A DNA stretch of 64,000 bases from Polymyxa betae A26-41. Taxonomy: Eukaryota > Protista > Endomyxa: Phytomyxea. Both the position numbers and the translations under genes were made by a program. The notes below the pieces were generated by a model. It searched no databases. It was not told where the DNA came from and worked only from the letters and a program-made list of their open reading frames with translations. Location of the stretch: NCBI GenBank assembly GCA_003693705.1, contig RBZT01000705.1, positions 62,001 to 126,000 of the forward strand, given 5' to 3'. This document shows positions 32,468-40,640 of the stretch, one piece after another (the first letter of the stretch is position 1; each line of letters begins with the position of its first letter).

Positions 32468-32830
32468 GGAAGACATTGATCAAATGATTGCGCGAATACC
32501 GCCGATCTGTCTCTCTCCAGAACTTGACGTCTGGGCTCAGACAGCGGCCGATACAGACCCCAAATCGGCCCCAAGACCCCACCAGCAACCATATCCAACT
32601 GAAGGGATCCCTCAGATCCCGTTCAGATGCGGTTGGCTTCAGCGATCGGGGGCCGGTATGACTCGGCCGATCCTTTTCGCAACTCTCTGGAATGATGTTG
32701 GGCATTGCTGGGCTCGATACGTTAACTGAACACCTCATTGCAATGTGGATGTCGAATGGTTGATCGGGCATGGAAGGGAATAGAAACCCTAATCACTGCC
32801 TGCCGGTCTTTCACCAAATTGATTGATGAT

Positions 32831-33425
32831 TGTAATGTTACTTTCTCAATTAAACTCTTCCCTCCTTATGATGTAATGTTACCTTCCTAATAATCCCTTC
32901 CATCGTAAATAATGTAATGCTAATCCGGCCATAGAGTGCATTCTGTTATTATGGTAGACGAGCTACCGGTAAGATCGCCGAAATCGTCATGTTTCGCCTG
33001 CTGGAGTGCAAACAGGACCAGAACCAGCTAAGAGTTGTACCGCTGTTCTTGCAGATTATCAAAGCAAACGATGGCAGAAAGAAGGCAGATCCCGCGGCTA
33101 CGAATCCGACGAATGGGTTGGTTAGGGTTTCAAATTTGAAACATACGCTATTTGAACGTGTATCGCCTGGACCTTGTCTACAGAAATGATTATCCTCAAG
33201 CGCTTCTATTATGAGGGTAGAGTGTATTAAAAAAGTAACATTACAGCATTAGGAAAGAAGGGTTTACAGTATTAAGAAAGTAACATTGTCCTATGGAGGG
33301 AAGCGTCTATTAAGAACGTAACATTACATCATAAGGAGGGAAGAATTTAAGAACGTAACATTATATCATAAGGAGGGAAGAATTTGTTAAGAACGTAACA
33401 TTATATCATAAGAAGGGAAGGGTTT
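32831..33425. repeat. bipartite inverted array of about 37-45 bp units (foldback/MITE-like or regulatory array)
   Basis: Unit TTAAGAACGTAACATTACATCATAAGGAGGGAAG: 5 direct copies at 33226-33425 and about 3 reverse copies at 32831-32921. Confidence 0.8.
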
Positions 33426-33507
33426 ACATACATGAGAGGTGCATATTGCGTATGTTATAGAGAGATGTGGTATCCCTCTGACCATTGATTATCATTCAGG
33501 TTCAGGA

Positions 33508-33858
33508 ATGCATCCGATCAGCTTCGCTGACCCAGACCGACATCCGCAATGGTTGTTGCCACTATGTCCTGTGTATTGAGATACTGACCATGTCCTGCAC
33601 AGCGCTGATCTGATTCGTGGTCTGGCGCGATGCCATGATGAACGCTCGGTGGCCAAGTTCTTCGGCGCCTGTAATGGTATCAAATCATTACTAGATCAAT
33701 GTGTTAAGAAAGAGGTCTTGTTACTATCTGCGGATCCATTTACCGGTCTCAGATTTATTCATTAGAAATTACCAAAACGGCAGAAGAATCTCGAGGAAGC
33801 ACGACGCTTGCGGGCGAAATGGGCTGAAACCAGAAAAACCCATGACGAGATAAGATAG
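33508..33858 (+). CDS. CMC2: COX assembly protein CMC2 (twin CX9C), 3 exons, absent from the ORF track
   Basis: Exons 33508-33551, 33603-33713 and 33766-33858 give MHPISFADPDRHPQCADLIRGLARCHDERSVAKFFGACNGIKSLLDQCVKKEKLPKRQKNLEEARR..*. Confidence 0.9.
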
Positions 33859-34005
33859 TCGATATTGAATCCAGATCTGTCTCTACTAAAGTATTCGTCC
33901 TTTGACTCTTCTTGGACACCAGCTTCGTAAACCCTAATACCCTAGCCAATCTTTGCCTACCTCGTCCAATACAAAGGTACGATGAATTCGTTTTTTTTGT
34001 ATGTT

Positions 34006-34557
34006 TTAGGATCCCAGGCTCACATGAATGAGCTGTTGAGCGCGCAAACCTCTGCGGATGGTAGTCCGCGAGCGCCCCCGGAACTGTGACTGATCCATGG
34101 CTTCGTGATGAATTGCAATGCCGACTGGGCCGGTATTTCTGCCCGCAATCCACAAAAGCCCTGGAATAAACATTCCAGGGCTAACCCCGCGACCCTCTCT
34201 TCGATATAGGCGTCGCGTGTTGGATTGTAGCCGGGCAGAAACTCCCGCAGACGCTGGCGTAGGGTCGCCAGTTCTTGGGCTTTTTTCTTTCGACAATGCC
34301 GGAAGAAGAGGCTCCAGGCTGTCGTTGTGTTCCTTGGCCGATTTGAGCTGTTTCGACAGCCTGGCGACTTTTTTAGAAGCCTTCCAGACGAGACCTGCCT
34401 CGTGAATAGCCCATAACTTGCTCGTCGCCACTGCGCTTTTGGATAACAAAACCTATAAAAATTCGTTTTTAGGGCTAGGGTTTATAACTCGGGATGCCTT
34501 CTTGTGTTGCGCTGTCCGTGGGTGCGTCAGGAGCCAGCGTCGTAGTGTGGGCGCCAT
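34006..34557 (-). CDS. putative partner ORF divergent from rep (spliced, possibly frameshifted)
   Basis: ATG 34557 (MAPTLRRWLLTHPRTAQHKKASR) joins in frame over a 36-nt GT-AG intron (34453-34488) to the 147-aa ORF; a second minus frame is also open to 34020. Confidence 0.4.
34466..34487 (+). promoter_or_regulatory. telo-box plus TATAA upstream of rep
   Basis: TTTTTAGGGCTAGGGTTTATAA ending 80 nt before ATG 34567. Confidence 0.4.
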
Positions 34558-34712
34558 TTTTAAACAATGGTTTCAATGTTTATTGACGATGAGGCGGATG
34601 CTGTCGACGTTGGCGAAGGTGTTGACGGTGAAGAAGAAGTTGTTGACGGTGAAGAAGAAGTCGATTTGGCAAAGAGGACTCGTTCGATGGTTTTCACGCT
34701 CCATGTGAACCA
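34515..34712 (+). repeat. left arm of 198-bp inverted repeat (rep leader plus first 146 nt of CDS)
   Basis: Reverse complement of 35714-35911 with one mismatch and no indel. Confidence 0.97.
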
Positions 34713-35866
34713 GGAACTGTTTTTTGCTGGAGGTTTCGCTCGGCTGCGCTCCGGTTGCCGGTGTTCCGGATCCTGAGCTGTTGGTCCAGGCGTTGCCTCA
34801 CAAATACCTGGTGTATGGTCGTGAAGTATGTCCGACGACGGGTTCGTTCCATCTACAGGGTTACGTGCAATTTCGTAACTCGATGTCGTTCCGCTCTATC
34901 CACGCCAAGCTCGCTCCGTACAAAGCATGGTTGCGCTGTGCGTACGGCACCGCTGCTTCCAATCGTCTTTACTGTTCGAAGGGTGGCGATTTCTTCGAGA
35001 GCGGACACTTTCCCAAAAACGAGAACGGATGCCGGTGGGAGAATGCTCTTGAACTCGCTCGCATGGGCAAGATCGACGACGTGGACGCTCAGACTCTGGT
35101 TCCATATGTGCGGTCCTTGGAGCGTCTTGAGGAACGACACATGTTTAATCAGGGCCTTCCGATTCTTGCTGAGTGTCGTAACGTCTGGGTGTGCGGTCCC
35201 ACACGTTGTGGGAAATCGTCTATTCTCACGCGGCTGTTCCGTTCGTGCGATGTTTACAGCAAGATTCAGAACAAAAACTGGTGCAACTACCGTCGTCAAC
35301 CGGTCGTATTAATCGACGATGTCGATTCGGATGGTTTCGGTCGTTGGGCGCTGTCGCATCTCAAGATCTGGACGGATTATAAACCATTTCCCGCTGAGCG
35401 TAAGTATGGTAATGTAAACATTCGGCCATATCATTTTATCATAACGTCGAACGAGACGCCGGAATCCGTCTTCGGTAATTCCGCTCCCGCCCATCGTGAC
35501 GCGGTCCTCAGTCGTTTCAAAGTCATTAACCTGTTCGACTGCTGTGGGAATGCGGCATTTTGCCGTTGTGCGACTCATCATCCCGCATTGTATCCCGAGG
35601 AGTCGTTGGTGCGTTTTATCAAAGAAACTGTCGCATGGTTTGCGTACGACGAGAAGAATCGAATTAATGTCCACTATCCCCCGGATGATCCGTTCTTTCG
35701 TGTCGAAGAGGATTGGTTCACATGGAGCGTGAAAACCATCGAACGAGTCCTCTTTGCCAAATCGACTTCTCCTTCACCGTCAACAACTTCTTCTTCACCG
35801 TCAACACCTTCGCCAACGTCGACAGCATCCGCCTCATCGTCAATAAACATTGAAACCATTGTTTAA
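34567..35866 (+). CDS. rep: CRESS-DNA virus-type Rep (HUH endonuclease plus SF3 helicase); motif I is +1 out of frame with the rest
   Basis: Motif I VFTLH (frame of 34567), motif II FHLQG, motif III YCSK, Walker A GPTRCGKS, Walker B VLIDDV, motif C IITSN, Arg finger AVLSRF. Confidence 0.93.
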
Positions 35867-35911
35867 AAATGGCGCCCACACTACGACGCTGGCTCCTGAC
35901 GCACCCACGGA
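35714..35911 (-). repeat. right arm of 198-bp inverted repeat (second copy of the rep 5' end)
   Basis: Minus strand re-encodes MVSMFIDDEA...VFTLHVNQ from 35859. Confidence 0.97.
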
Positions 35912-35942
35912 AAGCGCCAAAAGTGGGTTGCGCGGGGGTCGC

Positions 35943-35964
35943 GCACCCACTAATACTAGGGCGC
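35943..35964 (-). other. putative rolling-circle origin stem-loop with nonanucleotide TAGTATTAG
   Basis: Minus strand GCGCCC-TAGTATTAGT-GGGTGC (6-bp stem with one G.T pair); nonamer 35950-35958 matches TAGTATTAC at 8 of 9 positions. Confidence 0.75.
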
Positions 35965-36609
35965 TGTCATATAAAATAGGGTTGCAGGAGTCCAGGCTAT
36001 GATGGACTCCGGTTGCGTGCGCCTTTCGGCCATCGCCTGAGAGCATGTGGTTGTGCAGCTTCGCACATTCCCGGCCTTCACGATCGGGAGAGAAAGCGAA
36101 GAGAGAGTGAGAAGGTTACGTCTACGGGACCGTGGTCGAATTGTCGCTCAATTTCCTCTTTTGTTTATTTTTGTAAATCAATATTAATAACATTTACTGA
36201 TGGCTATGCTCTTAGAAAGAAAGCAGTGGGTCTAGTCATAACGCTTTACCGAAATGTTCTCGATTCGCTATCTTGTCCTGTCCCTGAAATCTTAGATCAG
36301 ATGTCACATGCTGTGGTTGCGTACTGTACGGTATGTAGAATCAATGATCTGTGATAATAGTTGCCGTTTTATTGCGATTTTCTGATGCTACGCTGTGCCT
36401 AAACTCATCAAATGCGCTCTCGTGATCAATATCAGCCATCCTGGTGACCGAGATTTCACTTTATCCACCCGTCAACGTTTTGACAAAAAAAAACATTTCA
36501 TAAATTATTCGCAGCTACAGCATGGCGGAATTTTTCTTTCGCCCAGAATCTGAACAGATTTCTGCATAGTAATAACCTATTTACACAATATCATGGAGAT
36601 AATCGTTAA

Positions 36610-39385
36610 CTATATTAATGTTGGTAGATTATTAGTTGATCTTGATCTAATAATGATCTTCTGTAATGCATTTGTTAATCTCTGTCCAGCCTTCACAACC
36701 GACATCGATTTCATGACGAACGGCAACATTCCAGATGAACAGCGCCGATATCTTCCGGGGTCTTTCAGGACCTGGGCCTGGGCCAGCTCGAACTCCAGCA
36801 CGCGGCTCGGACGGCGTGCTGGCCCGGCCGCGACAGCGGGCGGCTTCGCAAACAGCGACCTCGTCGTTGGTTTCGGCGCCGTGCGCTCGCCACTGGGCGG
36901 TAGTTCGGTCATGAACACGGAGCAGCGGTGCAGGACGTCGTCGGCGATCCGATCCAGGTCGTTCTCGACGGCGACTGCGTCGATCTGCAGATTCCATTCC
37001 GTGGCGGACGCCGACCGACGACGACGCTGTAGTCGCTGCCGCCCTGATAGACCATCATCGAATGGGGCCAGCATGGGATCCCCCAACACCCCCACGGTCG
37101 TACCATCCGTTACCGATACGAGCGTGATACTGGTGCTGTGGTACTGGCCCACGGCCAGGCACCGGATCGGTGCCAGATACCGCAGGACCCGGACGGCGTC
37201 GTTGGCGACGCGGAACTCGGCGATTCTGTTGATGTTGGAGGCGGCGGCGACGTCCAGCCCGATAACGATACCGTCGACTGTGGCCAGGTACACGTGACCG
37301 TGCGCATCATCGGCTGCGATCGCGGTCAGGGCGTGCTCGCCCACCACCTGCGATGTGGCGCGCAGACGGCATGTGCGCCGCCGCTGGGCCGGCATGACCC
37401 AGGTCTTGACGACGTTGTTCTGATCGATGGAGACCATCAGAGACGTGGTCGTCGTGATCATGGTCACGAACATGACCGCGGCGTCATGGGCGCGCTGGTT
37501 CAGTACGACGCAGGTCGAGGGCCAGATCTGCTGTACGACCAGGCGACCGTCGCTGCGTCCGGCCGCCACCCACGACCCGCAGTCCGAGACGAACACGGTG
37601 ACGGCGTCCTCGAGTCCGTCCACGAACACGGCCTGGTTCAGTACGGCATCGCCGGCCGACGTACTGGTCCGATATCGGCCCGATTTCTCCACCAACACGA
37701 CCTGATCACGGCACGAACTCGCTCGAATCCATGTGGGCGGACATGCTGGCCCCGACGGTATGCTGTACACGTGAGCGTTATGATGGAGACTGTAGGCGGC
37801 CACGTTTCCGTCGGTCTGTACGATGAAGAGGGTTGCGCCCCTGCGATCGAGATCGATAGAGATGACGGATACAGATAGTGGGATACGAGATTGTAACAGA
37901 CCTGTTAGAGATGACCAGATAGTGATCAGATCGGGGTCGTGGTGCCATACAATCACACGTAATAGAGCGCTGCTGTACAGAACGTCGCAGACCGCGCCCA
38001 TCATCATCTCGTCGTCCGCGGCCGAATACTGGACCAGGTCGTCGCCATCGCCGGCCAGCACGAGACGATCGCGAAACGCGACCATGGCCGTCAGCGACCG
38101 GTTCGTTCGGATTCGCTGGACGACGAGTCAGTGGCGGACCCCTGTCACCGACTCGGGGACCAGTATTACCTGAGAACAGACGAGCTGGGTCAGATTCCAT
38201 GTCATGATACATCCGCCTATATCAGCAGTAATCATTGTATCATGTACGAATATGATAGAATGAATCTCTGTATGATGTTCTCTTGTTTGAAATAGACGAA
38301 TATTGGAGTATGGATTATATATACTGATACGTCTATCATATGTACATACTGCCAACATACAATGATTAGGAGTAAATGATATCAATGATACACCATGAGA
38401 GACATCGAACAGGATTGTGGGTGATTCTGTCACCTATAGGGGGGCTCTGAAACCCTAAAACCCTAGCCGACCATCAACCACCGACCTGTATACAATCGCG
38501 CCCATCGCGCCGATATTCCCTCATAATCCATCCACGAATAGTTCGATCAAGAGATCCAGATACGAACAGGTTCGTTGATATACTACAGATCGATGTAACC
38601 TCATCCGTATGCAGAGCGGGAATACTGGCCGACGACCACGTCAACTGCGCCTGGGCATCGTACTCGGCCATGGCCATCGACCCGTCATTGAACCCGGCCA
38701 CGATCGATCCGTTCCTCAGCGCCGCCAGCGCCGTACACGGCGTCGTGATACGGAGCGCCGACGCCGTCGTCGTCGTCGTCTGCAGCGGGATCGCCTCGAT
38801 CGTCGAGCTCGTCGCCGTCACCAACACCGCGATCGATGCGCGCGGCACCGTCATCGTGATCACGTCGTTGACGTCGCCGCGCGCCAGTACGACGTCCGCG
38901 AACTGGCGCATGGTGACGGCATCGTACAGATGCGCCCGATGACGTCCGTCGACGACGGCGATGATGGCGCCGAGGTCGGCGCTGTACAGCAGGCGTTTGG
39001 CGAGACGGCGTCCGGGGACCAGAGCCGCGCCGGGCATGCGGCGATACCGCCGCTCCGTCGGTAGACGGCGTCGCTCCTGATGCTGGTGGCCGTACAGGAC
39101 CAGGGCGTCGAGGAACTCGGCGAAATCGACGACACCGTTGTCGTTGAGGTCCATGGCCCGGAACATGGCCGCCAACGCCACGGCGCCCGGCCGCTCCTGG
39201 AACCAGGCCAGGCCGTGCAGGCGGGCCAGCAGGGCCTGGACGAATTCGGCCTGGGTCACGCCCGGGCCGAGCCGCCCGGCCAGCTGGTCCAATACGTCGC
39301 GGTCGATGGTCAGGACGATCTGCTGGATCAGGTCGTCGACGCCCTGCAGACGCCTGTACAGGCGCGTCCGGGGCGTCGCTGGCAT
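36610..39385 (-). CDS. EF-hand plus WD40-repeat protein (WDR49/EFCAB8-like), multi-exon
   Basis: EF-hand FRAMDLNDNGVVDFAEFL; WD repeats LHTDEVTSI..FVSGSLDRTIRGW and EHHTEIHSI..ITADIGGCIMTWNL. Confidence 0.8.
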
Positions 39386-40225: not shown

Positions 40226-40254
40226 TTGTTTGATAATATAATAACCGCTTTCAC

Positions 40255-40640
40255 GTGTGTTTGGATGGTATTGGTATGGATGACGTTTGTATTGATGACA
40301 TTTGTATTGATGAGATCTGTATGGATGAGATATTTGAGATGACTGGATGAGATGTTGTTTTGTATGGATGAGATTTGTATGGATGAGATGTTGTTTTGTA
40401 TGGATGAGATTTGTATGGATGAGATTTGTATGGATGAAAAATGTTTGTTTTGTAATGATGGCATTTGTTTGTATTGGAAGGATGAGCTATTATTGATGAC
40501 ATTTGTATTGACGAGATTTGTACATATGGATGAGATTTTTCTGTTGTATTGATGGCATTTGTATAGATGAGATTTGTATGGATGAGATGTTTGTAATTTG
40601 AAGGGATGAGCCATCATTTGTATGGAGGACATTTGTATGG
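40255..40640. repeat. degenerate 15-bp minisatellite (ATTTGTATGGATGAG)n
   Basis: Many direct copies, with longer variants such as GATGAGATGTTGTTTTGTATG. Confidence 0.9.

Follow-up and report, generated by a model that had tools for sequence, protein, structure and literature searches.

We found that the stretch of hairpins and short repeats beside a broken Rep gene in this window (the whole stretch of 64,000 nucleotides that we analysed) is likely the fossil leading-strand origin of a CRESS virus, a circular single-stranded DNA virus of the Cressdnaviricota. Support for an origin comes from the Rep motifs, from a nonamer on the same strand as rep and at a fitting spacing, from short repeats and from the retention of the stretch in a second copy, and on this point the original prediction, which had proposed an origin region, is supported for a CRESS-type Rep. 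The layout of this likely fossil is odd and stem-poor and was seen in no relative that we fetched, and the conformational switch that had been proposed for it is unproven. The locus as a whole comprises a broken CRESS-virus Rep gene and adjoining origin-like hairpins in the genome of a plasmodiophorid-like protist. The DNA of the window is eukaryotic, the best named match of a neighbouring RRM protein is to Plasmodiophora brassicae (62% identity), and the locus is contained in the DNA runs X1 and X2, which come from two studies, alongside a diverged second copy; the copies were seen through the contigs of public runs. Draupnirvirus-like endogenous CRESS rep elements are already in print for Polymyxa betae (PMC10193959), and our locus is alike in having a CRESS rep in a plasmodiophorid genome, at that level only. 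Passages of that paper describe no origins, and "nonanucleotide" has no match in its main text. A literature search for plasmodiophorid CRESS elements returned this paper only, and the main text of PMC9615429 holds no plasmodiophorid terms.

The broken rep (34567..35866, plus strand) possesses HUH motifs I to III (FTLHVN, HLQG and YCSK), with motif I in a first frame and the remaining motifs in another. The frame shift lies near 34715-34730, between motifs I and II, and behind it the order is HLQG, YCSK, Walker A/B, motif C, Arg finger and a Cys-rich tail. The letters at the frame shift are identical in X1 and X2, and inspection by eye found no GT-AG intron near the shift that would restore the frame. 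Both Pfam matches are above the cut-off, namely Viral_Rep (E 6e-9) and the SF3-type helicase PF00910 (E 1e-7), whose motifs read GPTRCGKS (Walker A), LIDD (Walker B), ITSN (motif C) and LSRF (Arg finger), and the best match of the window Rep in the PDB is 7lar (E 1.5e-13). The tail behind the helicase (35540-35701) is rich in Cys and His, is common to the Rep proteins P0008, P0009, P0010 and P0012, and is a possible zinc-binding domain. When peptides of the flanks were searched for a capsid against 238 loci, a single borderline match appeared (E 0.010), and a phage collection gave no match.

Among 8077 library matches at E 0.001, three (P0008, P0009 and P0010) reached E 1e-50 or better. These three are 39-45% identical to the window Rep and share its Cys-rich tail, to about residue 311, while P0012 is 30% identical. 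A quick tree of 49 rows took in 48 of the 157 Rep matches (mostly the top ones, with the fragment P0017 excluded) besides the window Rep and placed the latter with P0008-P0010 and P0012 on one branch (SH-aLRT 95). The locus L086, which is nearly identical to P0009, carries an intact tail, then a small interrupted frame and then an Arg-rich capsid-like frame, the capsid-like call resting on the Arg-rich start; the fetched DNA of L086 includes no origin, and we read L086, from its gene order, as a free virus. Throughout this clade (P0008, P0009, P0010, P0012 and L086) the tail is unbroken, whereas in the window it is broken. Scans of viral contigs with the window Rep, P0008 and P0009 as single proteins returned no close relative, and scans with alignments returned CRESS loci that are only distantly related, plus a single fragment from the clade that lacks an origin. 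If its layout is native, the locus ties this unnamed Rep clade, otherwise metagenomic only, to plasmodiophorid hosts, which include crop parasites.

The variant nonamer TAGTATTAG lies at 35950..35958 on the minus strand and matches, at 8/9 positions, the commonest nonamer among related origins (found in 39 of 114). To the pattern NANTATTAC, expected near a CRESS rep, the window nonamer likewise matches at 8/9 positions, on the right strand and at the right distance, and its ninth base is G, compared to C in 114/114 related origins when only C or G was allowed. The nonamer stands on the rep strand, 91 nt ahead of the ATG, and the chance of meeting such an 8-mer in a span of this kind is about 0.004; the pattern TAGTATTAS occurs twice in the window versus 0.29 times expected. 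From the nonamer to a reference point in rep we counted 301 nt, compared to a median of 251 nt in 47 related origins. By analogy with known origins, the nick is predicted between 35952 and 35951 on the minus strand. A nonamer on the plus strand was dropped, being a worse match and opposite to rep. Among the matches listed by a literature text search for TAGTATTAG, none concerned CRESS origins by title.

Three iteron-like repeats of GTGGGTGCG occupy 35900..35950 on the minus strand, two of them direct (35942-35950 and 35900-35908) and one inverted with one extra T (35923-35932). All three exact occurrences of the 9-mer GTGGGTGCG in the window lie within this element. The term iteron is used by analogy, and binding of Rep to these repeats is putative. 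Read along the minus strand, the order is a half repeat, the nonamer, a repeat, the inverted repeat, a repeat and the ATG. At its ninth base (G, at +2) the nonamer overlaps the first base of the first repeat. Since G opens all three repeats, the variant G is probably native and no stray mutation. Circovirus and nanovirus origins are alike in that the nonamer stands on the rep strand upstream of rep, with short repeats between nick and ATG, and in that they serve a HUQ-type Rep with an SF3 helicase; the PCV2 origin, for example, has an AxTAxTAC loop and the hexamers H1-H4 (PMC2690592). Unlike them, the window origin lacks a 9-11 bp stem, carries G at +2, has a first repeat that overlaps the nonamer, and has an inverted repeat that gives a dominant hairpin starting at the nick.

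The sequence around the origin is duplicated in part, which bears on where the nonamer stands with respect to rep. A 204-nt inverted repeat doubles the rep leader and 5' end: its right arm (35714..35917, minus strand) holds the leader and the rep 5' end (ATG 35859) up to motif I and displaces the natural end of rep, and its left arm (34509..34712, plus strand), with differences at 34514 and 34655, is without the origin. On its outer side the duplicated arm stops 5-11 nt past the far foot of the strongest hairpin described below, hairpin A (34509-34514, 35912-35917), and the left arm starts 5 nt outside the far end of its equivalent of A; a 5-nt match beyond a mismatch at the arm end may be microhomology, and hairpin A may have set the breakpoint of the duplicated arm. 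Because of the inverted repeat, orientation is ambiguous: DNA contigs break at the arms and leave the direction of the 1001-nt middle unfixed. Contigs of X3 and X4 (two studies) lead from the left flank through the arm and then from 35713 downwards, which is the flipped order, with just 29 letters on the flank side in the X4 contig. We treated X3 and X4 as RNA since their contigs skip GT-AG introns, a status that comes from the intron skipping, as no listed run is recorded as RNA. A contig of this kind could also arise by the merging of two transcripts that each end within an arm, and because of this we consider it only somewhat more likely than not that the middle of about 1 kb is flipped in this assembly. 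Since one X2 contig of the second copy crosses the arm boundary from the leader into the rep body, and only one arm is evident there, an origin followed by a full rep would be the original order. The nonamer may really precede the full rep. That it lies upstream of the truncated copy, and not of the full rep, had been stated originally, and this is true of the locus as assembled but is probably unsafe given the flipped X3 and X4 contigs; until orientation is fixed, an origin facing nothing but a truncated rep should not be assumed.

Three hairpins, the minus-strand nonamer, a TATA-like motif TATAAAA (35970..35976, plus strand), which marks the outer end of the stretch common to the second copy, and a CTAG (35956-35959) all lie where they had been noted. 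Hairpin A (35922..35951) has 12 bp with one bulge and is the first GTGGGTGCG repeat paired with the inverted one, and on the minus strand it begins at the predicted nick. Its predicted energy is -13.9 kcal on the plus strand and -13.8 kcal on the minus strand (z -5.3 and -6.8, with 0/200 shuffles as good). In a scan of the 64 kb by 30-nt plus-strand windows with 50% GC or more, three sites reached -12 kcal or lower, hairpin A being the most stable. Hairpin B (35943..35964, minus strand) is a weak 6-bp stem around the nonamer with one G-T pair, predicted at -5.1 kcal (z -1.8, 11/200 shuffles as good). Folding of the single strand, which had been suggested as a check, yields a strong hairpin A beyond chance and a marginal hairpin B. 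The minimum free energy fold of the minus strand further predicts an outer 6-bp stem (35913..35965, pairing 35960-35965 with 35913-35918), which is absent from the earlier description; it would close hairpin A and leave most of the nonamer in an internal loop. At equilibrium, pair probabilities are 0.93-1.0 for hairpin A and 0.92-0.99 for the outer stem, while that for hairpin B rounds to 0, its predicted share being about 1e-5 to 1e-6. The bases T-7, T-4, T-2 and T-1 would be unpaired (pairing 0.01-0.05) and A-6, G-5 and A-3 partly paired (0.31-0.52), and A+1 and G+2 would be paired within hairpin A (0.95 and 0.99).

To place this layout, we compared it with origins of other Rep loci. In the first 80 loci, 54 hold a nonamer in a stem of at least six pairs (median 10), all C-ending, and across 224 loci there are 114 distinct stem-held origins, C-ending in 114/114 when C or G was allowed. 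In 287 Rep loci, 138/299 C-ending, 13/233 T-ending, 7/221 A-ending and 1/115 G-ending nonamer sites lie within a stem of at least seven pairs. These 287 loci are 301 less 14 pattern matches and mostly have 22-45% Rep identity, which makes them a background and no test of the clade. The window layout was found in none of these 287 loci, all of them distant, and neither was a long hairpin starting at +1: three sites passed a +1 to +3 filter, and none stood on inspection. A blastn search of the origin against the 224 loci gave chance matches of 12-13 nt only, and a search for a G-ending nonamer in a CCC/GGG stem pattern gave 14 viral stretches, none with a Rep match. The canonical nonamer loop sits on a stem of 9-11 bp (bioRxiv 2020.09.01.278671); such a stem is absent at the window origin, which has 6 bp with a G-T pair instead. 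A hairpin beside the nick is ordinary, since an exact 6-bp inverted repeat lies just 3' of the nick in 40/114 origins, which exceeds the shuffled maximum of 24 (mean 13.3). Two loci, L128 and L155, carry TAGTATTAT in stems of 7 and 14 bp, and because of them we take it that free CRESS-like contigs may differ at the ninth base. Four others (L014, L016, L022 and L032) show another non-canonical origin layout: the nonamer occupies a large loop, an inner hairpin stands on its 5' side, and +1 lies at the foot of the closing stem. The loci L230-L232 and L238 are contigs of about 3.2 kb from the viral collection with small frames and no Rep match, one with a match at both ends, and are unrelated.

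The reading that we favour, with reasonable but far from full confidence, is that of a native but stem-poor origin, nicked by a Rep that has bound the repeats and frayed hairpin A at its foot, with hairpin B incidental. Rep would bind the GTGGGTGCG repeats, and hairpin A would extrude, leaving most of TAGTATT unpaired beside it. By fraying the lowest pairs of A, Rep would then free +1 and +2 and nick at TAGTATT/AG. Hairpin B would be a by-product of the half repeat upstream and no needed state. Since the usual inner stem of 8-12 bp would be missing on both sides, the first repeat would overlap the ninth base, turning the usual C into G. The locus would consist of two parts of a single viral genome in a tail-to-tail join, with the origin formerly leading into the full rep. 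The predicted costs are compatible with this sequence of steps: freeing all nine nonamer bases takes 3.4-4.8 kcal versus 6.8-8.4 kcal for enforcing the core of B (three window sizes), and fraying the base of A is 2.5-3.6 kcal cheaper than forming B. Initiation in PCV requires the loop motif and the hexamers, and the stem is dispensable (PMC2690592). In the Reps of PCV2 and WDV a pocket takes up the +2 cytosine, and position -4 pairs with +1 (bioRxiv 2020.09.01.278671); because of this a G+2 within the stem of A may serve poorly as a substrate. Both the nick and the binding of Rep at the window origin are predictions. If the layout is native, this is a CRESS origin missed by origin-finding rules that expect a C-ending nonamer and a 9-11 bp stem, and its Rep would have a different preference at +2.

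A decayed or rearranged origin, which lost its stem or gained hairpin A by template switching during or after integration and whose layout never functioned in a virus, is a possible account to which we give a distinctly smaller chance. The locus is plainly rearranged (the 204-nt inverted duplication, the frame shift and the lost tail), the layout matches 0/287 Rep loci, and template switching at CRESS origins has been described (PMC2690592). Against this, the origin stretch is common to two copies that are 12% apart in rep, all three repeats start with G, and the loss of both inner arms with the repeats intact would be unlike random decay. The second copy, seen in X1 and X2, has 61 differences in 524 nt of rep (463/524 kept) and ends at 35348, behind which we observed a telomere-like word and an A/T-rich stretch. 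Over 35895-35975 it keeps 79/81 letters (2 differences), and conservation is higher in the origin stretch than in rep (p 0.005); behind 35975, the second copy diverges in X1 and X2. One difference, at 35924, lies in the far arm of hairpin A and breaks a pair unless the other difference compensates, which favours decay; that other difference, within 35946-35975, may lie in A, in the nonamer or in the spacer. There are also signs of conversion between the copies: the second copy in X2 equals the window over 35822-35923, where that in X1 has 9 differences, a contrast that suggests gene conversion or a chimeric contig. Since X2 equals the window where X1 differs, the argument from conservation of the origin stretch is weakened, and the excess identity between the copies may be due to gene conversion. 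If the layout is a product of decay, the locus adds a further endogenous viral fossil to those already reported from this host group.

Since hairpins A and B overlap, it had been proposed that they cannot form together and that the origin is a conformational switch. The first part is true of full A and full B, but a constrained fold has the three C-G pairs of B coexisting with the inner six pairs of A. The second part is not upheld, given the minute predicted share of B, the cheaper fraying of A and the absence of this layout from the distant related origins that we compared. A working two-state switch, in which the displaced strand would first fold into B and offer the nonamer for termination, after which A would hide +1 and +2 on the released circle, is in our view unlikely. 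In stepwise folding of the minus strand, B-type pairs do prevail (0.56-0.96) up to about 25 nt beyond the nick, with none left by 29 nt, the pairing of A+1 and G+2 within A is as the switch would have it, and the stem-loop of PCV matters for termination and not for initiation (PMC2690592). However, any weak hairpin 5' of a strong one would fold likewise, B with its six pairs, one of them G-T, compares poorly with the median 10-bp stem of the 54 related origins, no covariation was seen, and related origins show no clear excess of motifs that can pair both upstream and downstream (20/114 versus a shuffled mean of 10.1 and maximum of 22 for 5-mers; 3 versus 2.0 for 6-mers).

Competing overlapping hairpins are known at one HUH origin, the oriT of pMV158, where a hairpin with the nick in its loop went undetected and a larger one, with the nick at its base, is extruded and melted by the relaxase (PMC5863519). 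This oriT, served by the relaxase MobM, is like the window origin in its overlapping inverted repeats and in a strongest hairpin with the nick at its base, which for the window is a folding prediction. It differs in being bacterial and conjugative and in having the nick at the 3' foot, compared to the 5' foot here; the pMV158 layout has been footprinted and is conserved in 42 plasmids (PMC5863519), whereas that of the window is predicted only, is retained in a second copy possibly affected by conversion, and is absent from the 287 distant loci. The pMV158 oriT may serve as a model for how the window origin could work. A doubtful extension of this idea is that an unnamed, plasmodiophorid-infecting CRESS clade with a Cys-rich Rep tail has an origin that lacks the canonical stem and is nicked at the foot of a hairpin of Rep-binding repeats, which would gate the nick, and at which B would open a short termination window on the displaced strand and A would close the finished circle. 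If true, a eukaryotic virus origin would work by a hairpin switch of the kind demonstrated until now at a bacterial oriT.

Helitron RepHel joins a Y2 Rep to an SF1 helicase, and the Replitron Rep is a sole domain with no helicase (bioRxiv 2022.12.15.520654); the Helitron 3' end has CTRR after a hairpin, with insertion in AT (PMC4344730). That our hairpin is the end of such a rolling-circle transposon (Helitron- or Replitron-like) moving with a captured viral Rep is highly improbable: an HUH enzyme encoded close to a hairpin in eukaryotic DNA, the CTAG behind that hairpin and a common end near 35975 in two of at least two, probably three, Rep copies do recall these elements, but the letter after CTAG is G and not T, the sequence common to the second copy continues 16 nt past CTAG, the Rep combines Viral_Rep with an SF3 helicase and is neither RepHel nor helicase-free, the copies are at least 12% apart and cut at differing places (35348 in the second copy), and no empty site appeared in the contigs of 7 runs (X13 gave no contig, and the X9 contig merely starts at 36051). 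Helitron or Replitron identity, including the Helitron 3' end suggested originally, was rejected, as enzyme type, end-motif context and copy pattern all misfit. The probable third copy is a contig in X1 and X2 that matches 35249-35285 only, is more distant, and has loose ends that look Rep-like by eye.

Hairpin C (35987..36010, 8 bp) had been counted as part of the origin region and probably lies outside the element, judging from the copies. It falls outside the stretch common to the second copy, the end of an X12 contig breaks one of its pairs, and 8 extra letters stand behind 36011 in X1 and X12. Its z of -4.2 is taken against its own shuffles, and perfect 8-bp hairpins with loops of 3-12 nt occur at 10 distinct places in the window, which makes its class common. 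Just beyond, at 36043-36518, contigs of X3, X4 and X9 start at 36043-36051, the pieces 36083-36118 and 36334-36373 have look-alikes elsewhere, and box C/D-like words can be seen by eye, with no Rfam match; this stretch may be the 3' end of a WD40 gene or a small-RNA cluster. An Rfam search across 32500-36700 found nothing credible. Elsewhere in the window, A/T-rich repeats of about 37-61 nt lie at 32850-33426, with an inverted copy 400 nt off, and 15-nt tandem-like repeats stand at 40252-40608, upstream of the RRM gene. A 105-nt unit (34136-34240) is predicted to fold as RNA into a Y-shaped hairpin (-57 kcal, z -8.5); it has no Rfam match and may be a host non-coding RNA or a viral remnant, and a second copy of it with 9 differences is present elsewhere, in DNA and RNA-like runs.
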